64,000 nt of DNA from positions 1,674,050 to 1,738,049 of the forward strand of contig CP070695.1 of the NCBI GenBank assembly GCA_020353515.1. Direction: 5' to 3'. The notes below the pieces were generated by a model, which was not told the origin of the DNA, searched no databases, and saw only the letters and a program-made list of their open reading frames with translations. A program made the translations under genes and the position numbers. Shown here in pieces: positions 16,148 to 53,039 of the stretch. The number at the start of each line of letters is the position of its first letter. The stretch's first letter is position 1. Source of the stretch: Candidatus Heimdallarchaeota archaeon (GTDB lineage: Archaea > Asgardarchaeota > Heimdallarchaeia > Hodarchaeales > Hodarchaeaceae).

Positions 16148-16378
16148 TTAGCGCTTTGGTTTTGGAAGAAGTCTCTCGGATAACCACAGGAAGAGCAGAG
16201 ATATTAGTGATAAGGCACTAATCGCAAAACCAAACCACAATAACATTAAACCAATGAAGGGGATGAGAAACCATAGTACGAACAACCCAACTATAGCAAT
16301 GATTATTCCAATAAGGGTGAACCGTATTAGAGTTGATCGTGTGGTGATAAGTGCTCGAAGCTCAAATTCTCCGCTCAA
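16148..16378 (-). CDS. Small 2-TM membrane protein
   Basis: GGTGAG SD 6 nt before TTG at 16378 (MSGEFELRALITT...). Two hydrophobic segments and a basic tail. Confidence 0.65.
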   Translation of the reverse strand: MSGEFELRALITTRSTLIRFTLIGIIIAIVGLFVLWFLIPFIGLMLLWFGFAISALSLISLLFLWLSERLLPKPKR

Positions 16379-16487
16379 AATAATCTCACCCAAGGGTGAA
16401 TTTACATATAACAACAGCTTTATTAATACATTGTTGAAATCGTGTTATCAAAACTTGTTTCCATTAGTCTTAAGTGAAGGTGGTATA

Positions 16488-17486
16488 ATGGGCTTACGTC
16501 TGTACTTGGTTAAACGCTTACTTGTTGCTGTTGTTTTATTTGTAACTGTCTTAATCTTTAACTTCTTCCTCTTCCGTCTTCCCATTTTTGTCCTTGGAAT
16601 GGATCCAATGTCTTTATATACCACTCCTGACATGGAAGCCGAGACTGTCGCAAGATTAAGAGAGATTTACGGAATTCCTTCTAGAGACGCTGGTTTTTGG
16701 GCGTGGTTTGACCATTTCATACTTTATGTAAAAAACATGCTTACTCTTGAATTTGGCCAAAGCTTTGTTTCCTTTAATCCTGTCATTAATGATATCATGT
16801 CACGAATGCCAAACACAATCATGCTTATGGGAGTATCTACAGTTTTAATGATTGTTGTTGGAGTTATCACTGGTATAATAGCCGCTAGCCGATATGGGAG
16901 CAAAATTGATACAGGTCTTATAACGATAGGGCTTTCACTGTATAGTTTTCCAATATTCTTCATAGGCATGTTATTACTCTTAGTTTTTGGTTTCTATATT
17001 CCTCTTTTTCCTATAGGTCATTCAATCAGTTGGCCTTTACCGCCAGATCCAATCAGCTATGCCATAGATTATGGTTGGCATATGTTTTTACCCACTGTAA
17101 CGCTCACTCTAGGATTTTTCGGTGGATACATGTTACTCATGCGTAATACTCTAGTTGAAGTCTTAGTAGAAGATTATATTCTTACTGCAAGAGCGAAGGG
17201 GCTTCAAGAACGGACAGTGATATTTAAACACGGCTTACGTAATGCTTTCTTACCTCTTATTACAGTAATAGCAATAAGTTTTGCATTCATTGTTAGTGGA
17301 GCGGTTTTGACAGAAACTGTCTTTGCTTGGTTTGGGATGGGTCGTCTTCTTTACCAATCTCTCTTAAGCTATGACTGGCCAGTTTCTCAAGCTATCTTCT
17401 GGATGATTGCAGTAAGTGTTATTTCTGCAAATATCATTGCTGACCTTTTATATGGAGTTTTGGATCCACGTATAAAATACGGTTGA
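16488..17486 (+). CDS. oppB: Oligopeptide ABC permease OppB
   Basis: Start re-called to MGLRLYLVKRLL (GAAGGTGGT SD). FGQSF, EDYILTARAKGL, ETVFAWFGMG, DPRI motifs. Confidence 0.95.
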   Translation: MGLRLYLVKRLLVAVVLFVTVLIFNFFLFRLPIFVLGMDPMSLYTTPDMEAETVARLREIYGIPSRDAGFWAWFDHFILYVKNMLTLEFGQSFVSFNPVINDIMSRMPNTIMLMGVSTVLMIVVGVITGIIAASRYGSKIDTGLITIGLSLYSFPIFFIGMLLLLVFGFYIPLFPIGHSISWPLPPDPISYAIDYGWHMFLPTVTLTLGFFGGYMLLMRNTLVEVLVEDYILTARAKGLQERTVIFKHGLRNAFLPLITVIAISFAFIVSGAVLTETVFAWFGMGRLLYQSLLSYDWPVSQAIFWMIAVSVISANIIADLLYGVLDPRIKYG

Positions 17487-18677: not shown

Positions 18678-20612
18678 ATGAAAAAATCAAAACTACTAAG
18701 TTTAGTAGGTGCAATTGCTCTTCTGACGATTATCTCTGTCAGTAATGTCGGAGCAGTGACATCTCAAATCAAAACCACAGATAAATGGGCCACTGACTGG
18801 CGTCCTTATGGAACCTATGCAGATGAACTGTTATTTGTGGTTTTCACAGAAGGCGAGACCGCCCTAAAAATGTTAGCACTACAGAGCGGTGAAATCGTCG
18901 TAGACGATGAACGAATTCAATCAGATTACCTCGCTGCTCTTGTTCGAGATCCTAATATTGAGGTTACTTTTGCCCCAGGTTTAAGATATCGAGTAATTAC
19001 CTTAAACTGTGAGAAATTCCCCACTAACATCACAGGATACCGACGAGCGGTAGCTTTTGCTTATGACAAGTATAGAGCAAACATGGAAGCTATCGGAGGC
19101 GTTGGTTTACAATTAGACAGCTACATGCCATGGACTGCTACAGAATGGGAAGTCGAAAGCCAAATCGGGGGTGAATTCTATGACGCAGATTATGCTGCAG
19201 GTAATAGGTCGCTTGAGAAAGCTGGTTTTAGAGACTTAGATGGCGATGGTTGGCGTGAATACGATAAGAACAATAACAACGTGTGGGATGCAGGTGTGGA
19301 TATAGACGATAACGATCCTCTCCTTGCTATCGAGATGGGCGCCACCTCAGGTTATGATCCAGCTATTATCGCTGTTACAATCGCTGTTGAAGGCCTTGCA
19401 CAGATGGGTATGCGCGCTACAGTCGTTGAAAAGGACTTTGGACTCCTTCTAGACGAGCTCTTACTCGGGCAAGCCTCCTGTGCTTGCTGGACTGAAGGTA
19501 TCCCCAATATCAATACGATCAAACAAATGTACGACCGATTCCACAGAAGCGGAGCAGATTGGGACTATTATCGGTTCACAAACGAAACTATCGAGGAACA
19601 ACTTGAACTTATGGTGAATTCTACGACCACAGAAGATGTCAAGAAATACGGCCTCGAAGCCAGTAAACTGCTACTCTTTGAACAACCTCAGATTGTCGTC
19701 TATAACGACGCTATTGTTGAGGCCCGTCGTAATGACGTATGGGAAGGCTTCTTTGAACAAAAAGGTGCTGGATACTGCAATGGAGATAACCCTTGGGTTG
19801 GTGTTAAAGTCCGCCTACAAACTGGTGAACTGGGTGGAACACTCCGCTATGCATGTTCAGACAATCTCAACACTTTGAATGTCATGATGTTACAAACAGG
19901 TTACGAAGCTTTGGTTTACCAATATATCTGGGAAGGCTTATATAATGTCGAGCCAGAGACATGGGACATCATCCCTGGGTTAGCTTATGACTGGGAAGTT
20001 GAAACCACCACTGCAGACGCTGCTACTGGTATCCAAGACGGTGAGAAGTACACCTTCTACCTGTACGAAAACGAAACCTGGCATGATGGAGAAGACTTCA
20101 CCGCTGAAGACGTCAAGTTCACCTACGAGAACGTATGGAATTGGAGCTTGAACTACAATGTAGAAGCCGATTTTGTCTACAGAATTGATATGCCTGATGG
20201 TGCTGATGGACACGTTGTCGAAATGTATGTTAACCAGACAGGGTATTTCATGTGGGCTGAAGTTGCAGGCGCTACTATTGTCCCAGAGCATATCTGGAGC
20301 TCAGAGGCAGCACAAGAAAATGTTTCAGCATTTGTACCAACATCTGATGAAATGATCGGTACTGGCCCCTATAAGTGGAATCAACGTGTACCTGGTGAAT
20401 ACATCAGTCTCCTCCGCCATGGTGACTGGCGCTGGGATATTCGTGATGTACCTGAACCAGAAGAACCAACCACAGAACCAACAGAACCAACAGAAGCAAC
20501 AAAGACAAAAACAAAGACTAAAACAGATGAACCTGGGCCTGGATTTGAGCTTATTCCAGCATTCGCTGTATTTGTAACTGCTGCACTTTTCATCAGAAAG
20601 AGAAGAAAGTAA
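18678..20612 (+). CDS. oppA: Family-5 peptide-binding protein, circularly permuted, with Thr/Pro linker and PGF-CTERM anchor
   Basis: Signal peptide; ALQSGE, PGLAYDWE, WHDGEDFTAEDVKFTY, GTGPY motifs; C-terminus PEEPTTEPTEPTEAT...PGPGFELIPAFAVFVTAALFIRKRRK. Confidence 0.92.
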   Translation: MKKSKLLSLVGAIALLTIISVSNVGAVTSQIKTTDKWATDWRPYGTYADELLFVVFTEGETALKMLALQSGEIVVDDERIQSDYLAALVRDPNIEVTFAPGLRYRVITLNCEKFPTNITGYRRAVAFAYDKYRANMEAIGGVGLQLDSYMPWTATEWEVESQIGGEFYDADYAAGNRSLEKAGFRDLDGDGWREYDKNNNNVWDAGVDIDDNDPLLAIEMGATSGYDPAIIAVTIAVEGLAQMGMRATVVEKDFGLLLDELLLGQASCACWTEGIPNINTIKQMYDRFHRSGADWDYYRFTNETIEEQLELMVNSTTTEDVKKYGLEASKLLLFEQPQIVVYNDAIVEARRNDVWEGFFEQKGAGYCNGDNPWVGVKVRLQTGELGGTLRYACSDNLNTLNVMMLQTGYEALVYQYIWEGLYNVEPETWDIIPGLAYDWEVETTTADAATGIQDGEKYTFYLYENETWHDGEDFTAEDVKFTYENVWNWSLNYNVEADFVYRIDMPDGADGHVVEMYVNQTGYFMWAEVAGATIVPEHIWSSEAAQENVSAFVPTSDEMIGTGPYKWNQRVPGEYISLLRHGDWRWDIRDVPEPEEPTTEPTEPTEATKTKTKTKTDEPGPGFELIPAFAVFVTAALFIRKRRK

Positions 20613-26365: not shown

Positions 26366-28231
26366 ATGACAGCTTCTCATCTTGACGATTTTAAACAATA
26401 TTTAGCAATTGAAACGGCGGGTGGACCTACTTGGCACCCCAATAATCAAGAAATCGCATTCGTGTATGATAATCCAGGCTTGATGCAAATCTTTACAGTT
26501 CCAATACAGTCTGAACACACATTCTGGCCTAAGAGAATGATATATAACGAGAATCGTTGTACTGATCCTCGATATTTACAGGATGGGACAATTGTCTTTT
26601 TAAAGGATAATAAAGGGGACGAAAATTTCCAAATAGGATTCATTACCCGAGATCTCGATGTTGAATGGATTACGAATGATCTCTCTGCGAAACACTTGGT
26701 AACACTAACTACTACTAATTCGATCTATTATTCCGCTAATATTACAGATAAAAAAATTTTTTCTATTTATCGCCATAGGATTCCTCTTCAAACTAATAAT
26801 CCTGAACGAATATACCAACCTGATGAAGGGTTAGTTAAAGCGGAGGTAGTTTCACCTGATGAGAAATTCCTTGTTTTTGCAAGGATTCATGGGAATAATT
26901 ATCAAGAATTGTATCTCTTAGAAATAGAAACGGGGAAAATTGATCCACTATCACGGAAAATTTCTGGTGATTTTAAAACGAGGTGGACCGCCGTTCGATG
27001 GCTTGATCAAAACCATATATTAGTTCTTACCGATCATGAAAGTGAATTTCAAAGAATTGCGATAATTTCTTTTGATGGGAAATTTCATACTATCAACGAG
27101 ATAGAGACGAATTTACAATATGAATCCCCATCTAACACCTTCACATTTTGCGAAAATTCACCTTATACCTATTTCAGTTTTAATCAGGATGGGTATAGTA
27201 TTATTGTGCGAGCGATTTTCGATTCAAATGGTTGTTCAAAATATGAAACACTAGGATTACCACATAAGGCAGTTCTTGTAACTGCTGATGAAAGGACGTT
27301 TAAACAGGGATTAAGTCTTTCACCCGATGGGAACCTTTTGGCACTCACTCTTAGTTCTCCAACCTCGCCAATAAATATCTGGATTTTAGATTTACAATCT
27401 AGAAAACTCTGGAAAGCAACTGATGCAAGTACTGTAGGTTTAAATCCTAATAATTTTGTTGACACATCATTGAGAATCTTTTCAAGCTTTGATAGGTTGG
27501 AAGTTCCCTATTTTCGTTACTTACCCAAGGGAAAAGTCCCCAATGACAGATGGCCAGCGATTATCATCATTCATGGAGGCCCTGAAGCTCAAATTCGCCC
27601 CAATTTTTCGCCAGTAATACAATATTTTCTATCTGCTGGTTTTGCAGTAGTAACACCGAACATTCGTGGGAGTACTGGATACGGTCGTACATATCTTGAT
27701 CTTGATAATATAGAGAAGCGATTGGACTCGATTCGGGATATTCAATACTTAGTGAACGATATTCATGAAAATGATTCTCTTATCGATTCTAATCGTCTTG
27801 CTATCTTTGGTGGTAGTTATGGTGGTTTCGCAGTTTTATCAGTAATGACTGAATATCCTTCACTATGGAAAGCTGGTGTCGATATATTTGGTATAGCAAA
27901 TTTTGTGACTTTTCTTCAAAACACTGCCCCATGGAGACGAAAACTTCGAGAAATTGAATATGGGAGTCTTGATGGTGATATGGACACGTTAAATCGAATT
28001 AGTCCTATTCATAAAGTAGATCAAATAACAGCTCCATTATTTATTATTGCAGGTGACAATGATGAACGTGTACCTTTATCTGAATCGATTCAAATGTATG
28101 AAAGTTTGAAAGAGAGAGGTTTATCCGTTAAACTGCTACGCTTTGCTGATGAGGGTCATGGGATAACTAAATTGAAGAATAAAATTCAGGCATATTCAGA
28201 AATCATTTCATGGTTAAAAGAGCATGTTTGA
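26366..28231 (+). CDS. S9 family (acylaminoacyl/prolyl oligo)peptidase
   Basis: Beta-propeller N-terminus; HGGP, RGSTGYG, GGSYGG, NDERVP, DEGHG. Confidence 0.95.
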   Translation: MTASHLDDFKQYLAIETAGGPTWHPNNQEIAFVYDNPGLMQIFTVPIQSEHTFWPKRMIYNENRCTDPRYLQDGTIVFLKDNKGDENFQIGFITRDLDVEWITNDLSAKHLVTLTTTNSIYYSANITDKKIFSIYRHRIPLQTNNPERIYQPDEGLVKAEVVSPDEKFLVFARIHGNNYQELYLLEIETGKIDPLSRKISGDFKTRWTAVRWLDQNHILVLTDHESEFQRIAIISFDGKFHTINEIETNLQYESPSNTFTFCENSPYTYFSFNQDGYSIIVRAIFDSNGCSKYETLGLPHKAVLVTADERTFKQGLSLSPDGNLLALTLSSPTSPINIWILDLQSRKLWKATDASTVGLNPNNFVDTSLRIFSSFDRLEVPYFRYLPKGKVPNDRWPAIIIIHGGPEAQIRPNFSPVIQYFLSAGFAVVTPNIRGSTGYGRTYLDLDNIEKRLDSIRDIQYLVNDIHENDSLIDSNRLAIFGGSYGGFAVLSVMTEYPSLWKAGVDIFGIANFVTFLQNTAPWRRKLREIEYGSLDGDMDTLNRISPIHKVDQITAPLFIIAGDNDERVPLSESIQMYESLKERGLSVKLLRFADEGHGITKLKNKIQAYSEIISWLKEHV

Positions 28232-36369: not shown

Positions 36370-38679
36370 ATGGCAGAACATTGGTACAAAGACCTAATGC
36401 AAGAGCTTCGTTTAATTACTATTTCTATTCAAGAATCTCAGGCTATTCAACTAAAGCGAATATCTCGGGAGGAGACCACAGATATAGATGGAAAAAAATT
36501 CCAAGAAAATACTCATGATATTATAGCAAACTTGTTTTCTCAGATTAAACAAGAATTGGGTTCCTCTTCTACGAGGAAAATAGAAAGAGAGATTGTATTT
36601 CGTGCATCAATGAACTATATTAGCAAGCAAATTCTTTCTAAATATCTCCAAAGTGTTCAAAATAAATCTAAAATCCTATATTCCCTCCCAAAAACAGATT
36701 ATGATTATCTAAATCCTTCACAAGAGGTACAAGATAAGTTCGTAGAATTATTTAAGGAATACAAACTAAAAAAATTAAGCTTCGATCAATTAGGAGAAAT
36801 TTACAAAGAAGTTTTGAAATTATGTGATCAACAGAATCCCTTGGGGGCATTTTATACACCAAGAGAGACAGTTGAATATATGGTCTCAAGACTTGATCTA
36901 AAAAGTGATTCAAAAGTTTTTGATCCTGCCTGTGGGAATGGGAACTTTTTAGAATCTTGTACCACGAACCTCAAGAAGAGGAATTTAGATGTAGGTTACG
37001 ATGAATTGAAGGCCAATCAAAAGGCGATAGAACAAGTTTGGGGTAATGATATTGATCCATATGCAGTACTCCTTTCAATTGTCCGTATATTTTCCTTAAA
37101 CGTTGAAAATCAATCATTAGAAAATTTAAACATAACTAATCTTGATGCTCTTGAAATTGAGAGTTGGAATATTTTTAAACATGGAGAAGAAATAGATTGT
37201 ATTATTGGAAATCCTCCATATGGCATTTCCCCATCTTTAGAGCGTAGAGAAATGTATAAAACGATCTATCGTGACGAAGCAAATGTATATGGGTATAAGC
37301 TAGGAGGAAACGATCTTTTTGGGTTTTTTTTAGCAAGTGCGATAAAAATTGTTAAGAATGGAGGGAGGATTTGTTTTATTGGAACTGATACTTTTTTGTC
37401 TTTGAGAACGCATAGGAATCTCAGACAGTTAATATTAAACACATGTAAAATTGATGAAATTCTACTTGCCCCGATAAACTTATTTCGACCTATGACTACG
37501 TCACGTACTTGTATCATTACTCTAACCAAACAATTATGTAAAAATGGATACAATCACTCTTCAAATCCCACTACTCATCAGAATAAACGTTATTGCAATT
37601 GTACTGCTTGTTATAGCAGAAGAAAAAGTCGAATTAGACTAATTAATCGTCTTTACAATCAATCTGAATATTTCAATCCCTCAGATAACAAAGTTCAGAT
37701 TATTAATCAGGAAGAATACGATTATATCAATGGGAATCCATTTTGGATAAATGTTCCTCCAAAAATCATTCAAATAATGAGATTAGCTAATCTACCAGCG
37801 CCAGATAATATTCAAGAAGGCTGGAAATACGTAGAATTAAGAAAATATATTGGTGGTGGTGAAGGGATATCTACAGGTGATAATTCTTCTCATCTTGTTA
37901 TAATAGAAAATTCAAGGCTTTGGAAAAAACTAATGAAAAAGCGAAGTAAGAAACTTGACAGATTTCGGGTTTTGGACGAAGAAAAGATTTTTGATTCTTC
38001 CTCTCTAGATGAGAAGACCCTAGAACAGTATCGATACCATGGGATTGAAGGAGATCAATTTTTAGTTCCGTTTGAAAGGGGTTCCTACATTCCATATTGG
38101 GGAAGTGAGGGTTGGTACATTGATTGGAGCGTATCTTCTGTATTAAAAATAAAAAAACGTGCTAAAGAGTCAAAAGGAAGAAGAGCGGTTTTTAGAAATC
38201 CGCATCTCTATTTTCATTCTGGAATAATAACTGACGCACATCATGGAATTTTAAAAGCAACACTCACTGAAAAAACTATTCCAGCTGGAAATACAAATTT
38301 GTTTTTTGGTTTAGGTGTGGAGATCGAATTTCTCCTAGGGTATTTAAATTCGAAACTAGCGAGTTATTTGTTAGGGAAAATTATCAATACCTCTCTTGGG
38401 GGAATGAGTGGTCACGTAACACCCGAAAATATAAAACGATTGCCTTTATTATTACCAACAGAGAAAAATTCAAAAATCTTTGATGAATTGAAAGGACAAG
38501 TTATCCACCTAACAAGAAAAATCATTTCAAAACTAAAATTTGATTTAAACACGGACTATTCAAAAGAAAAGTCTCAGATCGACAATTTAATCCTCAAATG
38601 GTTTAATCTAGGTGAAACAGAAATAGTAGCTATCGATAATTATGTGAATCAAGTCAAGGTAGAAAAATTACTTTATTAA
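36370..38679 (+). CDS. N6-adenine DNA methyltransferase (gamma class, Eco57I/TaqI-like) with C-terminal target-recognition region
   Basis: GAFYTP, FDPACGNGNF, IIGNPPY, FRN...YF, LLGYLNS. Confidence 0.9.
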   Translation: MAEHWYKDLMQELRLITISIQESQAIQLKRISREETTDIDGKKFQENTHDIIANLFSQIKQELGSSSTRKIEREIVFRASMNYISKQILSKYLQSVQNKSKILYSLPKTDYDYLNPSQEVQDKFVELFKEYKLKKLSFDQLGEIYKEVLKLCDQQNPLGAFYTPRETVEYMVSRLDLKSDSKVFDPACGNGNFLESCTTNLKKRNLDVGYDELKANQKAIEQVWGNDIDPYAVLLSIVRIFSLNVENQSLENLNITNLDALEIESWNIFKHGEEIDCIIGNPPYGISPSLERREMYKTIYRDEANVYGYKLGGNDLFGFFLASAIKIVKNGGRICFIGTDTFLSLRTHRNLRQLILNTCKIDEILLAPINLFRPMTTSRTCIITLTKQLCKNGYNHSSNPTTHQNKRYCNCTACYSRRKSRIRLINRLYNQSEYFNPSDNKVQIINQEEYDYINGNPFWINVPPKIIQIMRLANLPAPDNIQEGWKYVELRKYIGGGEGISTGDNSSHLVIIENSRLWKKLMKKRSKKLDRFRVLDEEKIFDSSSLDEKTLEQYRYHGIEGDQFLVPFERGSYIPYWGSEGWYIDWSVSSVLKIKKRAKESKGRRAVFRNPHLYFHSGIITDAHHGILKATLTEKTIPAGNTNLFFGLGVEIEFLLGYLNSKLASYLLGKIINTSLGGMSGHVTPENIKRLPLLLPTEKNSKIFDELKGQVIHLTRKIISKLKFDLNTDYSKEKSQIDNLILKWFNLGETEIVAIDNYVNQVKVEKLLY

Positions 38680-38728: not shown

Positions 38729-39661
38729 ATGGCATTAACAACACGATTTAAGGATTATTTTGACTTATTTCGTTTTTCTCTTGGAATTTTATGTGCTATT
38801 GCTGTGCTAATAGCTGGTTTTATTGTTCATGTTATACAAGGAGGGGTTCCAGATTTCGTTTCTTTCCTAATGAATAATGGAATAATTTCAATTGATGGAT
38901 TAGTTCTTGGAATGATTGCAACATTATTATTGGCTTCTGCAATAGAGGCGATTAATGATGTTTACGATGTTGAAACTGATATTGCCAATAAACGATTTGA
39001 TAGGCCAATAGCACGAGGAGCTTTTACACCTGAATATGTGCGTAATTTATGTATTACGTTCTTTCTCCTTTCAATTGTGATAACTGTGGTCTTAGTACTA
39101 TTCTATCGTGTTACAGCGGCTTTAATATTCTTTATCTTATTCTTTATAATCATTGGAGTAGGATATAACTATGTAAAACGTAGTGGCTTCATAGGCAATA
39201 TGTGGGTCTCAATAGGTTATGTTGCACCCCTATTCATTGGTTTCTTCTTATTAGGTCCCCAAAACGATCATATAATCGCGATCTGTCTTCTCATTCTAGC
39301 TGTATCTTTTCTCCTAGCAACAGGGAGAGAAATTGTAAAAGACATTCAGGATTATGAGGGGGATCTTCAAACAAACTACTATTCGCTCGCAGTTCGGATT
39401 GGCCCGAAAGGAGCAGCTTATATTGCTATGGTTTTCTTTGCTGTTACAGTAGTTTGTGCTATAATTGTGGGAGTCCTAGTATACAATAACTTAGTATTTT
39501 GGTTATTTCTCCTCGTTTTAGCAATTATATTAGGATTGACTTCGTTCACAATAATTACAGAACCTCCTGCAACAGGTGGGAAAAAGGCCCGGAAGTATAC
39601 TCGGTGGTCTTTATGGTGGGCGCTGGGAGCTTTCTTTATTGGAGTATTTTTTATACCCTAA
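38729..39661 (+). CDS. Digeranylgeranylglyceryl-phosphate synthase (UbiA family)
   Basis: INDVYDVETD..N...RPIARG, YNYVKR.GFIGN, REIVKDIQDYEGD. Confidence 0.88.
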   Translation: MALTTRFKDYFDLFRFSLGILCAIAVLIAGFIVHVIQGGVPDFVSFLMNNGIISIDGLVLGMIATLLLASAIEAINDVYDVETDIANKRFDRPIARGAFTPEYVRNLCITFFLLSIVITVVLVLFYRVTAALIFFILFFIIIGVGYNYVKRSGFIGNMWVSIGYVAPLFIGFFLLGPQNDHIIAICLLILAVSFLLATGREIVKDIQDYEGDLQTNYYSLAVRIGPKGAAYIAMVFFAVTVVCAIIVGVLVYNNLVFWLFLLVLAIILGLTSFTIITEPPATGGKKARKYTRWSLWWALGAFFIGVFFIP

Positions 39662-39673
39662 GTGTTATACTAG

Positions 39674-41101
39674 GTGGTAAATTTGTCAGATGAATTAGAT
39701 GAAGAATCCAAGGACTGGAGTATTCAAGATAACGATTTGCTATATCCTTTTGCAGTAATTCTATTCATGATGTCTTTTTTTGATTTAACAGGATTATTGA
39801 CATCAATCACTGTAGTTAGTACACCAATATCTATGATCATTACGGAGATCTTCAACTTGACACAAACAAGTTATGAATCTGTAAAAATAATTCTAAGACT
39901 TGGAATAAATTTGATAGCCCAGACTGGATTTATTATAAGTTTTCTCTTTCTACACAAAAAAGAAAAACTTGAACCTGAAGAGAAAGACATGCCAGTCGGT
40001 AATCATATTTTTACTACTTATCTCGTTTATTCATTATTAATGGTATTTGCATTATCAACCTTGATTATTGACTTCATTCTAGAAACCCTAGGTCTACCAA
40101 CAGTAAGCCCATACAGTGGAATTGCACCGAATTTGGAATTACTTGGAATTCCGATTTACTATATTCTATTTTTTGCTGTACTCGTAGTAGGAGCTGCGGT
40201 AGGTGAAGAACTGGTCTTTCGAAGAGCATTTATCCCCTATTTGGAGCGTCGTGGTCTTGGAACCTTCTGGGTTCTCCTTTTCTCAAGTCTCCTATTTTCT
40301 TTAATGCACACTCCTGCAGATCTTCTATCTGGATCCATTCGTTTTGCTATAGTACATTTTCTTAACACATTTGCAGGGGGATTCGCCTTAGGCTTTTTAT
40401 ACATGAGAACAAGAAAGATCATTTTTCCTATTATATTACATGGTTTGGTTAACGGTGTAGCGGCTATAGGTCAAATCGGAGACGTCAGATGGAATGAACT
40501 CAACGAATATACATTACTTGGTTTGGGGGGATTGTGGTTATTGACAGCTCTAATTATTGGAGGGGGAACAGTCGTACTGGTTGTGATCCAAATTATACGC
40601 TATAGAAACTCTCCTGAACCACCAGTTTGGCTTTTAATTCTAAGTGATTTTAACCTTCGCTCATCTCGATTACTCCCAGTGAGCTTAATAGCTGCAGGAT
40701 TTATCGGAATAACGGCTGGGCTACCCATTCTTTTTGACTTCTTCTTTCAGTTATTTGGACTGCAAAATTCTGAACTGGCCATTATAAGATATGTATTTGA
40801 AACTGTATATCTCATTTTACTAATAATCCTCCTTGCATATTTTATTTTTAGAAGATCTGGCCCCCTGAAAAAACCAGATTGGGTTTCAGATACTAAATTT
40901 CCTGAAAAGGTAGGTCCAAGTTATCCTACTCCCACAATTGGTCTTCAAATAAATCTCTGTGGTTCATGTGGACGAGAAATTATTCCTCAAACGAAGTTCT
41001 GTGTTTATTGTGGAGAGATGATTGTAAATACTTGTGTTTCCTGTGGAAATGAAATCGTCCCGAACACTGAATTCTGTGTATATTGTGGTACGAAAGTCTA
41101 A
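39674..41101 (+). CDS. CPBP (Rce1/Abi, type II CAAX) intramembrane protease with C-terminal double zinc ribbon
   Basis: EELVFR, FSLMH, HGLVN; CGSCG...FCVYCG...CVSCG...FCVYCG. Confidence 0.9.
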   Translation: MVNLSDELDEESKDWSIQDNDLLYPFAVILFMMSFFDLTGLLTSITVVSTPISMIITEIFNLTQTSYESVKIILRLGINLIAQTGFIISFLFLHKKEKLEPEEKDMPVGNHIFTTYLVYSLLMVFALSTLIIDFILETLGLPTVSPYSGIAPNLELLGIPIYYILFFAVLVVGAAVGEELVFRRAFIPYLERRGLGTFWVLLFSSLLFSLMHTPADLLSGSIRFAIVHFLNTFAGGFALGFLYMRTRKIIFPIILHGLVNGVAAIGQIGDVRWNELNEYTLLGLGGLWLLTALIIGGGTVVLVVIQIIRYRNSPEPPVWLLILSDFNLRSSRLLPVSLIAAGFIGITAGLPILFDFFFQLFGLQNSELAIIRYVFETVYLILLIILLAYFIFRRSGPLKKPDWVSDTKFPEKVGPSYPTPTIGLQINLCGSCGREIIPQTKFCVYCGEMIVNTCVSCGNEIVPNTEFCVYCGTKV

Positions 41102-48483: not shown

Positions 48484-49401
48484 TTATAAGAGAGAATAAA
48501 TTTTATCTAGAGTAAGCTCAAATAAAACTAGAGGGAAAAGAATTTTAATCGAATTTTGAGTCACCCAAGAGCAGCCGTTGAAGTATGCCACAATATACTG
48601 TAGATAATGAGGTATTAGGGAAAAACCCTGAATGTCAGAGAGAAAATGATCCTCATGAATACTCATTGTAACTTGAACTGACACAGGATTAATAATTTTC
48701 ATTTCCAGAGTAACTAGTTCCGTTTCAAACCAAGAAAGAAGCGTCGTAAAAAAGTTTGAGAGAAAATAGAAATTTCCCCAGATGATTGGATTAACATGGC
48801 CGATTACGTCTGTCTTAATAGAAGAGGACAAAAAAAATTTCACTTGAGAGGTAAATGGGGAGTGAGAAAGGCCGCCAGTTAAGATCTTCACTAGGGAGAT
48901 GGGATGAATTGAGGGTGATATCGCATTTAATTGTAAAAAGTCAGACGCAATAAGAGTAGCAATTTTTTGACGATGAGACGCCCGTAATAATTTTCTAAGT
49001 AACACAGGAGCCAAGTGCTCATTGTCTGCTAATACATGTGCACCAAGATCAATAGTCAAGGAAGCTGTTCGCAGTTCGTGGATTAATTCTTCGACCCAGA
49101 GCTTATCAGTGTTAAAACTTGTTTTTCTGAATTGCTGAAGGATATAACGACCAAGGGTCTCATTAGAATGAATTTCCAAATCGAATTTCTGAATTGAAGG
49201 TAGTGAAATTGTTGAGGAAACAACTGAGGGATGAACCCCTAACATTTCAGCAAAAACCTGAGTGAAAAATAAAACGACATCGTCAATAGGAGATAATATG
49301 ATGAAAGAATTGAAAGGTTTGATACTAATAGAACCTGATTCGTTGCGCTGTTTAATCACGATCTTCATACTCTCCTCAATGAATACTAGAAATAGATTCA
49401 T
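48484..49401 (-). CDS. Hypothetical protein, last gene of longin operon
   Basis: 305-aa ORF overlapping the longin gene end. A probable start is MKIVIKQ after GAGGAG. Confidence 0.7.
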   Translation of the reverse strand: MNLFLVFIEESMKIVIKQRNESGSISIKPFNSFIILSPIDDVVLFFTQVFAEMLGVHPSVVSSTISLPSIQKFDLEIHSNETLGRYILQQFRKTSFNTDKLWVEELIHELRTASLTIDLGAHVLADNEHLAPVLLRKLLRASHRQKIATLIASDFLQLNAISPSIHPISLVKILTGGLSHSPFTSQVKFFLSSSIKTDVIGHVNPIIWGNFYFLSNFFTTLLSWFETELVTLEMKIINPVSVQVTMSIHEDHFLSDIQGFSLIPHYLQYIVAYFNGCSWVTQNSIKILFPLVLFELTLDKIYSLL

Positions 49402-49813
49402 TTTCCAAAGAAGAGCGATCTAGTTTCATTAATCCACTAGTTTCAAGTATATTATCAATAATAATTGAAAAATCTCTATAGATATTAGGTTCAATTAGTT
49501 CCTGTTCAAGAAATTCATGGTAATGATCAACAAAATTAAAGTAAATTCGCCTCATAATTGTAGATATCTTTCGTTTGGAGATATTTTTCCCTGACGTGAC
49601 TAAGGCAAGAACGATTTCTTTTTTTGATTCGTAAAAAATAATATGATGTTCCATACGAATTTCGTTGATTTTTTCTCCAATCATGTTCTTCGCAAAACTG
49701 GAGACAGCTACCAAAAAGCCACTATATAAGTCGATATTTTGGGATTCATCACCATAAGAGCGTGAAAGCAAACACAATCCAGATTCGTGGATGATGAAAA
49801 TACTTCGAATCAT
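49376..49813 (-). CDS. Stand-alone longin-domain protein (Asgard eukaryotic signature protein)
   Basis: MIRSIFIIHESGLCLLSRSY...LYSGFLVAVSSFAKNM...INEIRM...IVLALV...helix: classic longin pattern. Confidence 0.85.
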   Translation of the reverse strand: MIRSIFIIHESGLCLLSRSYGDESQNIDLYSGFLVAVSSFAKNMIGEKINEIRMEHHIIFYESKKEIVLALVTSGKNISKRKISTIMRRIYFNFVDHYHEFLEQELIEPNIYRDFSIIIDNILETSGLMKLDRSSLENESISSIH

Positions 49814-50130
49814 GATTGGTTTCTTCCATGAGTTGAGGCCGAATTGAATAAAACATCATATGAAAATAACCCATTTCCACCATAGATTTTTAGAATAGCT
49901 TCTTGATCGTTAATAACTTCAAAGTAAAACTGTTTATCCGTGATTTCATACAGAGCAGCAAGGAATGTTTTTATCATTACCCTTAAAAGATTTATTTTTT
50001 GCGAGAAAAAACAATACAGCCCATCCTCATAAAGCTCATAATCTCGTAGGAGAACAGTCGAAAGGAGAGTTACAAGGAGAGCTGCATTTATGTATGGGTC
50101 TTCATTTCGAATTATAGTTTTCATTACCAT
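49810..50130 (-). CDS. Small hypothetical protein, translationally coupled to the longin gene
   Basis: 106 aa; ATGA stop/start overlap with the longin gene. Confidence 0.7.
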   Translation of the reverse strand: MVMKTIIRNEDPYINAALLVTLLSTVLLRDYELYEDGLYCFFSQKINLLRVMIKTFLAALYEITDKQFYFEVINDQEAILKIYGGNGLFSYDVLFNSASTHGRNQS

Positions 50131-50172: not shown

Positions 50173-50325
50173 TTAGGGGTTCGGTGGTGTTGTAGTTGGA
50201 TCAGCCACCCCTGAAACTGTTCCTAAAAGAAGAATGGTCAAGAAAACTATCAAAGGAATCATTTTTAATATGGATCCTTTGCATGGTCTATGATTTTCTA
50301 ATCGATTTCGGAGTTTATTTAACAA
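50173..50325 (-). CDS. Unannotated 50-aa pre-peptide (signal peptide plus short Pro/Thr tail)
   Basis: GAGGTGA SD (50332-50338), 6 nt, TTG: MLNKLRNRLENHRPCKGSILKMIPLIVFLTILLLGTVSGVADPTTTPPNP*. Alternative ATG at 50262 gives 29 aa. Confidence 0.65.
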   Translation of the reverse strand: MLNKLRNRLENHRPCKGSILKMIPLIVFLTILLLGTVSGVADPTTTPPNP

Positions 50326-50398
50326 TGTTATTCACCTCTAATACTTGTGAAAAGAAAACATCATAAAAATTATTCTTTAGAAATCTTAATGAAGTAAA

Positions 50399-51925
50399 TT
50401 GAAAGAAAAAATTGCACAAATAGTTGCTTTTTTTGCTTTGAGTTTTATCTGTATAATCACGGGAAGTCAAGTTATGAAGCTCCAAGAGGAAGAAAAATCC
50501 GATTTGATTAGTTTAAATTTACCATCGAACTTTATTAAAGATTTTATTCAATATTGGGAGAATATTAAAAGAACTGTAAGACCAGATGGAAAAACCAACG
50601 TTTCTTGGAAAAAATGGAATGAAATATCTCAAAAAGCATTAGAAACTTTGACTATGCCCTTTTTTAACAAATGGAAACATCTAGGAATATTCTCTTGGAT
50701 TGAAGCTTATATAGATTCTTTTTTTTCAATTACCCTTAACTTCAAAGGGGGGGCAATACTACTTCCTAAACAACTTATTCTTTATGAAGCAATGAAACCC
50801 AGCAATTCGTTACTTTCGAATTTGAAGGAGGAACCATCAAGCGAGGGCTTAGAAAGGATACTGGATTCATTATTTGGAGATTTAGACATTCGATTAATAA
50901 TGAGTGACCTTCAGATCTTAAAAAAGCTGGCTCAACCTAAGTTTTCAAAATCATTAGACAGATTCCCTAAATTAAAAGAACTGGCATATGGAATACGTCG
51001 TGATGTAAGAACTGTCTCTAACAGATTAGACTATTTAATTCAAACCCGGATTTTATGTCTGATCTACTTGGTTGATATGGCCCGAATTGGATATCAAACA
51101 ATATTATTGCGTCATAGTATAAAAAGATCACAAATTTTAAAGGAAATTCATCCTTATATTGTAATGGACTTCCCTTTATCATCTGATAGCTTCTTAACAA
51201 TAATTCATTTTCCATTTCGTGACGTACAGGTATATAAAAACCTTATCACATTTTTTAATCCTAATGAAATGAATATAATGAATAAACAATATCGTGGATG
51301 GAATTTTTCAGGCTTAACTAAAGATCCTAATAAGAGATGGAGGTTATTACCTCCAATCTTGCAGGATGGAGGAAATTGGAAAAAGGAGTTAATAACAGCA
51401 GAGTCAGGTATTGAGTTTAATTTGGATCCTTATTATGATCCTTTTCCTTTATCTTATCGTCAAGGACAACTTCTTGGGTTGATTCATAAACTCTCCACAA
51501 TGGAGGAGGAATATCTCGCAAAACAATTGAAAGTTGGCCGTGCTTATGTGTCCAAGGATGCTAAGACACTATTGAGAAATCGGGTTATTTTTCGTTTTCC
51601 AATCTTTTTCAACCTAGGTTTTGGTACATGGATTTATTTTTGTATCAGAAATTTAATATCTAATAAATCAGGAGGACTATTGAATGTCCTTGAACACCTG
51701 AAATTTTTTCCGTATGTAAATGTGTATTATAATCTAGATGAAGGTGCATTGATCGGTAGAACGAGGATACCCCCTTCTTGGACAGATAGATTTATATTTA
51801 GTTTATCGTCCCTCCCTAGTGTTTTTCCAGAAGCTTCAATTTCATACTACATTGGACCTAAATCTTACGCTCCTTGGGGTTTTGACATTCTTGGGACTTT
51901 CGATTGGGATAATTACCCCAAGTAG
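50399..51925 (+). CDS. Tandem (double) Lrp/AsnC-like HTH transcription regulator with extra N-terminal domain (probable start ATG 50474)
   Basis: DLQILKKL...LKELAYGIRRDVRTVSNRLDYL...VDMARIGY, and a second copy QGQLLGLI...YLAKQLKVGRAYVSKDAKTLL...FNLGF. Confidence 0.8.
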   Translation: MKEKIAQIVAFFALSFICIITGSQVMKLQEEEKSDLISLNLPSNFIKDFIQYWENIKRTVRPDGKTNVSWKKWNEISQKALETLTMPFFNKWKHLGIFSWIEAYIDSFFSITLNFKGGAILLPKQLILYEAMKPSNSLLSNLKEEPSSEGLERILDSLFGDLDIRLIMSDLQILKKLAQPKFSKSLDRFPKLKELAYGIRRDVRTVSNRLDYLIQTRILCLIYLVDMARIGYQTILLRHSIKRSQILKEIHPYIVMDFPLSSDSFLTIIHFPFRDVQVYKNLITFFNPNEMNIMNKQYRGWNFSGLTKDPNKRWRLLPPILQDGGNWKKELITAESGIEFNLDPYYDPFPLSYRQGQLLGLIHKLSTMEEEYLAKQLKVGRAYVSKDAKTLLRNRVIFRFPIFFNLGFGTWIYFCIRNLISNKSGGLLNVLEHLKFFPYVNVYYNLDEGALIGRTRIPPSWTDRFIFSLSSLPSVFPEASISYYIGPKSYAPWGFDILGTFDWDNYPK

Positions 51926-52097: not shown

Positions 52098-53039
52098 TTG
52101 ATTGACAACCAGACAATCGGAGTTCTGTTTGCTCTCCTAGCTGCAGTCTGTTGGGGGCTAGGAGCATCTCTCTATAAGATTGTCATAAAAACAGAACATT
52201 CCCTTTTCCTGACGATAGCCATCCGAGGGGCCATTGCTGTTCCGTTCATTGCAGTTGTAACTTTCTTTGTTAATGGATTTGCGTCTTTGGGGATATTATT
52301 TTCTCCCGAGGTGCTCCCAATTCTACTTATTTCAAGTGCATTTGTAAGTATCGGCGATCTTTCTTTTTTTGGGTCACTTCAACGAATGGATGTTTCAAAA
52401 GCCATGCCTATTGCCTCAATTTACCCTTTATTTACCGCTATATTACTGATTATTTTTGGACTGGAGACAATCACCTCAATTGTACTAATAGGAATAATAA
52501 TATTGATTTTAGGACTTGGATTTTTATCCCAACAAGAAAAGGAAAATTCAGCAGATTCTAAATCAGAAGAAAAATTAAAGGTAGGATTAGCACTAGCGGT
52601 GATAGCTGCCATATTTTGGAGCTTTGGTATCTATACATTGCGATTACTCTTAGATTTTCCAGAAGTAGATGTTTATTCATTAGCAACAGTTCGCTTTGGC
52701 TTATTAACCAGCATTTTTATAATAATATGGGGTATAAATACGACTTATAATTATAAAATCGGAAAGGACGATCCAGCCTCGCTCGAGCACATTACTAAGA
52801 AAGTAGGCCTTGTGTTTGGTATAGGGGGAATACTATCCTGGGGAATTGGAGCTATCAGCTTTTTTTCATCAATTGAGTTGATTGGTGCTGCACGAGCCAC
52901 CCCGATATCATCGATCAATCCCTTAATATCAGTCATTATCGGGATTGCTGTTTTAAAAGAAAAACTCAAGCCTCTACAAGCAATAGGAATTTTATTGATG
53001 ATATTTGGATCGATTTTTGTTTCCCTCCAGCAAAGCTAG
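52098..53039 (+). CDS. DMT/EamA family transporter
   Basis: ALLAAVCWG, duplicated halves, LKEKLKPLQAIGILL. Confidence 0.92.
   Translation: MIDNQTIGVLFALLAAVCWGLGASLYKIVIKTEHSLFLTIAIRGAIAVPFIAVVTFFVNGFASLGILFSPEVLPILLISSAFVSIGDLSFFGSLQRMDVSKAMPIASIYPLFTAILLIIFGLETITSIVLIGIIILILGLGFLSQQEKENSADSKSEEKLKVGLALAVIAAIFWSFGIYTLRLLLDFPEVDVYSLATVRFGLLTSIFIIIWGINTTYNYKIGKDDPASLEHITKKVGLVFGIGGILSWGIGAISFFSSIELIGAARATPISSINPLISVIIGIAVLKEKLKPLQAIGILLMIFGSIFVSLQQS

Follow-up and report, generated by a model that had tools for sequence, protein, structure and literature searches.

The window analysed here is a stretch of 64,000 nucleotides (nt) from the genome of Candidatus Heimdallarchaeota archaeon (GCA_020353515.1, contig CP070695.1, positions 1,674,050 to 1,738,049 of the forward strand). 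In it, an un-called open reading frame (ORF) for a mini-protein, which we refer to as SM, stands head to head with a gene for a large regulator-like protein, which we refer to as REG. A preliminary description, made from the sequence alone, had put this pair forward as a possible peptide signalling module of an Asgard archaeon. The host does belong to this group, as the names of the REG homologues place it in Hodarchaeales, and the small ORF is present as claimed, with a GAGGTGA Shine-Dalgarno motif, a basic n-region, a hydrophobic core, and the TVSGVA and DPTTTPPNP stretches. In the product, a basic N-terminal region of 21 amino acids (aa) is followed by a K-x-x-P boundary, a 13-aa hydrophobic core, TVSGVA, and the 9-aa tail DPTTTPPNP. 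Based on the charge distribution, SM proteins are predicted to have a cytosolic N-terminus, one membrane span, and a Pro/Gly-rich tail of 9–17 aa on the outside.

SM is a genuine conserved gene. In related genomes, a small frame of like build (44–56 aa) was found divergently upstream of nearly every REG homologue, including REG orthologues (38–68% identity) and paralogues down to 21–30% identity, and each of these frames carries a Shine-Dalgarno-like motif 6–8 nt before the equivalent ATG or TTG. The SM orthologues have GGAGG, GGTGA or GGATGA at an equal distance and start with ATG or TTG at the same codon. Altogether, the family comprises approximately 75 distinct sequences of 41–56 aa, and an alignment of 25 sequences is nearly gap-free. 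When 1.84 billion protein representatives were searched with an SM profile, 59 matched, all of which are stand-alone proteins of 29–81 aa matched end to end, except for an 899-aa protein with multiple transmembrane (TM) segments, which is a false positive. Because the database homologues stand alone and are matched over their whole length, SM is not the truncated remnant of a longer protein. The outcome named beforehand as fatal to the proposal, namely that the ORF is not conserved or that its homologues are longer, therefore failed to materialise. Selection was examined in seven orthologues of one clade, for which the proportion of synonymous differences (pS) is approximately 0.4–0.5; the ratio of nonsynonymous to synonymous differences (pN/pS), calculated for each region from the six orthologues of equal length, is 0.11 in the N-region and 0.13 in the membrane span. 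The conservation, the pN/pS values, and the exclusive adjacency to REG rule out a chance ORF or a non-coding element, indicating that SM is a translated and selected mini-protein of approximately 50 aa. There is no Rfam match at the SM–REG locus, and a search of the ESM Atlas with SM gave sub-threshold look-alikes only.

REG had been described as a "double Lrp" regulator carrying two helix-turn-helix (HTH) and two ligand-binding units. Its start was assigned to the ATG at 50465 because the longer frame from the TTG at 50399 contains stop codons in orthologues and because the public homologues are 478–508 aa long; a start at this TTG, which would add a membrane anchor, is ruled out. The public homologues, all annotated as hypothetical, come from Hodarchaeales/Heimdall-type metagenome-assembled genomes. 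No Pfam model reaches threshold on REG. When a profile of 38 family members was compared with PDB sequences, both halves matched Lrp/AsnC regulators in the stretches 133–257 and 321–428, with PH1519 (E 5e-3, positions 133–257) and PH0140 (E 3e-7, positions 321–419) as matches. The AlphaFold2 (AF2) model of REG, with a predicted local distance difference test score (pLDDT) of 88.6, starts with a helical/hairpin domain, after which come two HTH+RAM units in an alpha/beta Lrp-like fold; the linker is approximately 50 aa long. Foldseek placed the tandem Lrp-like protein NirDL first (4czc and 4ch7, E ~5e-8, TM(target) 0.58), followed by many single Lrp/AsnC regulators, with fold matches to ST1022, PH0061, LrpA, and AsnC. 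In the consensus, both HTH units keep the Lrp-type recognition-helix pattern. The sequence profiles, the AF2 model, and Foldseek thus bear out the earlier description and identify REG as a tandem Lrp/AsnC-type protein of the cytoplasm that carries two HTH domains and two ligand-binding (RAM) domains. We take the NirDL match to reflect a shared architecture and not to be a sign of an enzyme. It had also been anticipated that the receptor is not an RRNPP protein with tetratricopeptide repeats (TPRs), and in line with this, no TPR was found in REG by Pfam at E up to 0.1.

Within one Hodarchaeales lineage, SM and REG make up a conserved cassette of two genes. A six-frame profile search of the 4.94-Mb genome to which the window belongs returned exactly three significant SM matches, each adjoining one of the three REG genes, and no orphan SM copy. 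Because of this complete correspondence, the adjacency of the two genes is far beyond chance, and the head-to-head layout seen in the window is real. In a hidden Markov model scan of all fetched loci, which hold 67 distinct REG copies, SM was divergent from REG within approximately 150 nt at 51 copies and lay downstream on the same strand at another two, indicating that the linkage survives rearrangement. SM is lacking at 13 copies, most of which belong to tandem REG arrays, and there is also one clear loss. Three loci (L046, G020:C234; L047, G001:C14; L069, G005:C14) hold tandem arrays of three to four REG paralogues, only one of which has an SM. Full-length REG occurs in 21/21 genomes of the host's own genus and more weakly in the sister family, where a 520-aa homologue is accompanied by a divergent SM with the ending ...ADPPPPP...; the copy number per genome is between 1 and approximately 12. 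A search of 251 Asgard genomes revealed no full-length REG in the other families covered.

Comparison of the 75 distinct SM sequences revealed that the most conserved feature is K21-x-x-P24 at the inner boundary of the span (K or R at position 21 in 70/74, P24 in 67/75). The outer boundary is conserved as well, with G39 in 60/75, A41 in 56/75, D42 in 46/73, and P43 in 62/74. The G-x-A at this boundary fits the -3/-1 rule and is similar to the sites at which genuine signal peptides of the same genome are cut (VGA|, VSA|, and VTA|), whose hydrophobic and cleavage (h+c) regions span 20–24 aa, a length equal to that in SM. A pilin-type or Tat signal was rejected as the alignments contain no conserved motif for either; for a class III (pilin/archaellin) site, K or R precedes the SM core but no conserved G or A follows. 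In clade A, which includes the SM of the window, the tail consists of G-x-A-D-P and a proline run with conserved P47, P48, and P50, which also rank among the best-conserved columns of the family. The tails of clades B and C are Gly/Ala/Pro-rich and end with a hydrophobic residue followed by D or E, and the tail types follow the REG tree. In clade B, REG orthologues are 75% identical, and the corresponding SM proteins are 89% identical in the N-region and span and 58% identical in the tail. The pN/pS of the tail is approximately 0.8 overall in pairs of the same length and approximately 1 at the variable positions that lie between conserved ones in clade B, where the division into variable and conserved positions was drawn from the same sequences and is descriptive only. 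The clade-A values are saturated and uninformative.

Table 1. Features of the window. Positions are counted from the first letter of the window.
Feature	Position	Strand	Description
SM	50173-50325	-	Un-called ORF for a 50-aa mini-protein; start TTG 50323-50325, stop TAA 50173-50175
Shine-Dalgarno-like GAGGTGA	50332-50338	-	6-nt spacer to the SM TTG
SM–REG intergenic region	50326-50464		139 nt from start codon to start codon; blocks conserved across species
REG	50465-51925	+	486 aa, tandem Lrp/AsnC-like; N-terminal domain of ~130 aa, then two HTH+RAM units
g106	49810-50130	-	106 aa; 42 nt downstream of SM, same strand; conserved as third gene of clade-A cassettes and of nearby paralogue cassettes
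Longin-like stand-alone protein	49376-49813	-	145 aa; variably present in orthologous loci
g305	48484-49401	-	305 aa; ends the SM-led operon; presence varies among orthologous loci
EamA-family transporter	52098-53039	+	Downstream of REG, same strand; syntenic in close orthologues
Opp-like permease	16254-17486	+	
SBP_bac_5 protein	18678-20612	+	
S9 prolyl oligopeptidase	26366-28231	+	621 aa
N6-methylase	36370-38679	+	769 aa; Eco57I/MmeI type
UbiA-family prenyltransferase and Rce1-like CAAX prenyl endopeptidase	38729-41101	+	Endopeptidase fused to zinc ribbons

The intergenic region presumably holds both promoters and the REG operators. Blocks conserved across species, such as TAGAAAT...TTAATGAAGTAAATAG, are candidate promoter or operator elements, and a search of this region for inverted or direct repeats yielded nothing convincing. 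Orthologous loci share the gene order helicase, DinB, g305, longin, g106, and SM, divergent from REG and EamA, with the longin and g305 genes variably lost. The g106 homologues are lineage-specific proteins of approximately 100 aa that come after SM in many cassettes. The AF2 model of g106 (pLDDT 73) has an alpha-beta-beta-alpha-beta-beta order. No relatives of g106 emerged from hhalign against REG, from PDB sequence profiles, or from Foldseek (E >0.1), and VIA-align returned generic two-layer alpha/beta folds at Z <=6.5, with V4R/Bet3-like and ACT-like folds at Z 4–5, so that these four methods gave no convincing match to a RAM, roadblock/longin, or V4R domain. In g305, an invariant HELRT(A)S stretch shared by seven orthologues resembles the H-box of histidine kinases, and the DHp domains of ERS1 and of CpxA are weak profile matches (E 0.045–0.19). 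It has no Pfam match, including HisKA and HATPase, and no TM segment; judged from these features, g305 may be a signalling protein of a kinase-like or pseudo-kinase type that is soluble. On the other side of the cassette, the EamA transporter is a possible target of REG.

The genes that follow SM in other cassettes include an FtsX-type ABC system, an NUBPL-like ATPase with a transporter, and small proteins with two M16 peptidases; no downstream gene is constant, and REG is the sole constant partner of SM. In the second cassette of the same genome (G000:C1:1940648-1942409, loci L002/L040), SM starts at a TTG after GGTGAGGTGA; next to it come a g106-like gene (95 aa) and then an FtsX-type ABC permease of 1012 aa, which is accompanied by two ATPase genes. 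The SM tail of the third cassette (G000:C1:31031-32737, locus L104 7032-8732) ends in ...GALID. Four small ORFs (92, 155, 145, and 128 aa, two of which are paralogues with 60% identity) follow this SM, together with a 504-aa protein and two M16 (insulinase-type) peptidases, and an NUBPL/Mrp-like ATPase is encoded downstream of REG.

We tentatively prefer a mechanism, which we consider quite possible, in which SM is a propeptide whose released tail feeds back on REG. SM would insert in the membrane, where signal peptidase would cleave it at the small-x-small site behind either G39 or A41 of G-x-A-D-P, freeing a short proline-rich C-terminal peptide that would build up outside the cell. This peptide would act on REG either directly, if any of the numerous peptide ABC importers takes it up, or indirectly, and REG would control the two divergent promoters, that of SM-g106(-longin-g305) and that of REG itself. 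Cassettes that are paralogous but differ in their tails would then work as separate channels, and REG copies without an SM would be eavesdroppers. We favour this mechanism because SM is paired with REG at 51 + 2 of the 67 copies in a linkage that withstands rearrangement, because the tail type tracks the REG clade, and because the pair is also found in the sister family. The fit of G-x-A to the -3/-1 rule and its likeness to the signal peptides of the same genome point in the same direction, as do a tail with fixed anchor positions and variable ones between them, the multiplication of the cassettes (up to 12 REG per genome) with some receptors left orphan, and the ligand-binding RAM domains of REG. 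The coding signal (pS 0.4–0.5, pN/pS 0.11–0.13) and the fixed family size of 41–56 aa are further reasons.

Several observations weigh against the release of a signal from SM. Its N-region of approximately 20 aa exceeds the n-regions of 4–8 aa in genuine signal peptides of the same genome, and the strength of its conservation goes beyond what a signal-peptide n-region needs and would fit a membrane-resident mini-protein equally well. The SM alignment has no indels across the membrane span, as for a true TM helix. Of the two cleavage sites proposed initially (VSG|VA or GVA|D), the second did not hold up for the family: although the small-x-small motif is conserved family-wide, a proline occupies the +1 position of the A41|D42 site in 11/73 members, and signal peptidase I does not cut before proline, which excludes this site as a family-wide one. 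Only a site after G39 would serve all SM clades. RAM domains are known to bind amino acids rather than peptides, and we know of no peptide quorum sensing in archaea. None of the cassette neighbourhoods examined revealed an exporter, protease, or importer consistently linked to the cassette. An Opp system had been noted in the window, and the permease and the SBP_bac_5 protein are indeed there; however, they lie approximately 30 kb from the cassette, have no specific link with it, and represent one of approximately 14 Opp-like loci in the genome, and for these reasons the argument from Opp is weak. The S9 prolyl oligopeptidase and the Opp/Dpp-type proteins, encoded 24–34 kb from the cassette, could both handle Pro-rich peptides. 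The suggestion of quorum-type or paracrine signalling is supported in part: the layout, the small-x-small motif before a D-P/proline tail, the clade-specific tails, and the multiplied cassettes speak for it, and the long conserved N-region, the lack of TPRs in the receptor, and the non-specific Opp genes speak against it.

Many of the same observations could be explained if SM is an uncleaved membrane mini-protein in the N-in/C-out orientation, whose conserved basic amphipathic N-segment binds REG so as to retain it at the membrane or modulate it there. This contact would perhaps be made through the family-specific N-terminal domain of REG, and the outer Pro-rich tail would be a bait or a stop-transfer element. 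We regard such a membrane-bound partner of REG as possible, though slightly less likely than a propeptide. It would account for the strong purifying selection on the N-region and TM span, which are more conserved than REG itself, for the gapless alignment and fixed-length span with K21-x-x-P24 as the most conserved element, for the unusual length of the N-region, and for the tolerance of D42-to-P substitutions. The extra N-terminal domain of approximately 130 aa in REG and the one-to-one pairing also agree with a direct contact, and the geometry of SM, with one TM segment within approximately 30 residues of the C-terminus, fits a tail-anchored or Prli42-like type. On this account, however, the conserved G-x-A, the proline positions of the tail, and the fixed C-terminal residue pair in clades B and C are left unexplained, and a tail of 9–17 aa makes a poor sensor. 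The pattern of selection does not decide between an SM that is cleaved and one that stays in the membrane because precursors that diversify by pherotype, such as ComC and AgrD, also combine a conserved leader with a variable C-terminus, and the two readings fit the data nearly equally.

It is unlikely that SM is simply an output of REG. In this reading, the RAM domains would let REG sense an ordinary metabolite and switch on the SM-led operon; SM, as a small component of the membrane acting together with g106, longin, and g305 or with transporters, would have no part as a signal or as a REG partner. Lrp/AsnC regulators are often divergent from their targets, the intergenic region is conserved, and the genes downstream of SM vary among cassettes, all of which would suit such an arrangement. 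What it does not predict is that REG, and no downstream gene, is constant beside SM and that no orphan SM exists. The co-diversification of the SM tail type with the REG clade also argues against it, although shared descent alone could yield the same pattern.

It is far less probable that SM is a small membrane-active toxin or an archaeocin-like peptide, in the manner of type I toxins or the precursors of bacteriocins, with REG as its repressor or immunity regulator: the size of SM, its single hydrophobic helix, its multi-copy distribution, and its fast-evolving C-terminus are as expected for such peptides, but the locus is stably kept in synteny throughout the genus, no genes for mobile elements, immunity, or export came to light, the N-region shows strong conservation, and a 486-aa regulator is unlike an antitoxin. 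Least credible of all, and highly improbable, is that REG is an Lrp-fold enzyme like the siroheme decarboxylases NirDL and AhbA/B and that its pairing with SM has nothing to do with gene control, since the top-ranking NirDL match in Foldseek reflects the tandem architecture, the sequence profiles match true Lrp/AsnC regulators, the Lrp-type recognition-helix pattern is kept in both HTH units, and no haem-synthesis genes are present among the scanned neighbours.

Among known systems, the idea of SM as a propeptide finds its closest parallel in the RRNPP family, which has been defined by a five-criterion signature, namely a small propeptide of 10–100 aa, its secretion through Sec or PptAB, a receptor of 250–500 aa, the presence of TPRs in the receptor, and adjacency of the two genes (PMC10075063). 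SM (50 aa in the window, 41–56 aa in the family) and REG (486 aa) are within these size ranges and are direct neighbours separated by 139 nt, but REG has an Lrp-like fold without TPRs. The pair is thus not a member of RRNPP, although by analogy it may work in a similar manner. As in the RRNPP(A) cassettes of Bacillota and phages (Rap/Phr, NprR/NprX, PlcR/PapR, and AimR/AimP), a small signal-peptide-like gene lies beside the gene for a cytoplasmic receptor or regulator, the candidate active part is at the C-terminus, and many paralogous cassettes with distinct tails coexist in a genome with some orphan receptors, of which the REG copies without SM are reminiscent of orphan Rap receptors. In contrast to those cassettes, the host is an archaeon, the receptor is built as (HTH+RAM)x2, SM has a long conserved N-region and a Pro-rich tail of 9–17 aa, and secretion, processing, and Opp import are putative. 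The precursors ComC, AgrD, and ComX likewise consist of a conserved N-terminal part and a fast-diverging released signal, and they are served by dedicated exporters or processing enzymes and by membrane histidine kinases. SM has a comparable division into a conserved N-terminal part and a fast-diverging would-be signal, but no dedicated exporter, processing enzyme, or histidine kinase is consistently linked to SM–REG.

The membrane miniproteins of 30–50 aa offer a parallel of the other kind: Prli42 tethers the stressosome, and MgrB acts on PhoQ. Their single TM segment lies close to the C-terminus, as in SM, and they act on a signalling protein through a short cytosolic N-segment rich in Lys and Arg. 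SM is unrelated to them in sequence, its partner is a soluble, predicted DNA-binding protein whose gene adjoins that of SM, and its outer tail carries conserved motifs. REG, for its part, has the HTH_AsnC-type and RAM domains of the Lrp/AsnC (feast/famine) regulators PH0140, PH1519/FL11, and LrpA, which are often divergent from their targets. It differs from them in having two units in one chain, an extra N-terminal domain, a long linker, sub-threshold Pfam scores, and a distribution restricted to a single lineage. The tandem Lrp-like architecture is shared with NirDL and AhbA/B, where it is made of one chain or a heterodimer, whereas REG lacks a haem-pathway context, has the additional N-terminal domain, and is closer to true regulators by its profile.

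To our knowledge, no ribosomal peptide signal has been established in Archaea, and outside Bacillota and their phages, no peptide quorum sensing that relies on a cytoplasmic receptor is known. Literature searches for archaeal or Asgard peptide signalling with Lrp proteins returned nothing relevant, and no paper on SM–REG was found. If SM is processed as we propose, the cassettes might represent the first peptide cell–cell signalling in Archaea, with a proline-rich pheromone of 9–17 aa, a tandem Lrp/RAM receptor, and multiple orthogonal private channels per genome, some of them wired to longin or histidine-kinase-like genes; we consider this broader scheme possible but doubtful. If SM instead holds REG at the membrane, it would represent a new coupling of a membrane mini-protein to an Lrp-type transcription factor. 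In either case, SM adds a well-supported member to the poorly charted archaeal small proteins, which some gene callers overlook. The cassette is clean and testable, consisting of a 50-aa gene, one regulator, and a short conserved control region, with tails short enough for synthetic peptides, and it sits in the archaeal lineage nearest eukaryotes, as Hodarchaeales are their proposed closest relatives.

Elsewhere in the window, the UbiA-family prenyltransferase gene is directly followed by the gene for the Rce1-like CAAX prenyl endopeptidase, a eukaryote-style pairing of prenylation and CAAX processing. The N6-methylase, which is type IIG-like (restriction-modification), is encoded upstream of a conserved syntenic block.

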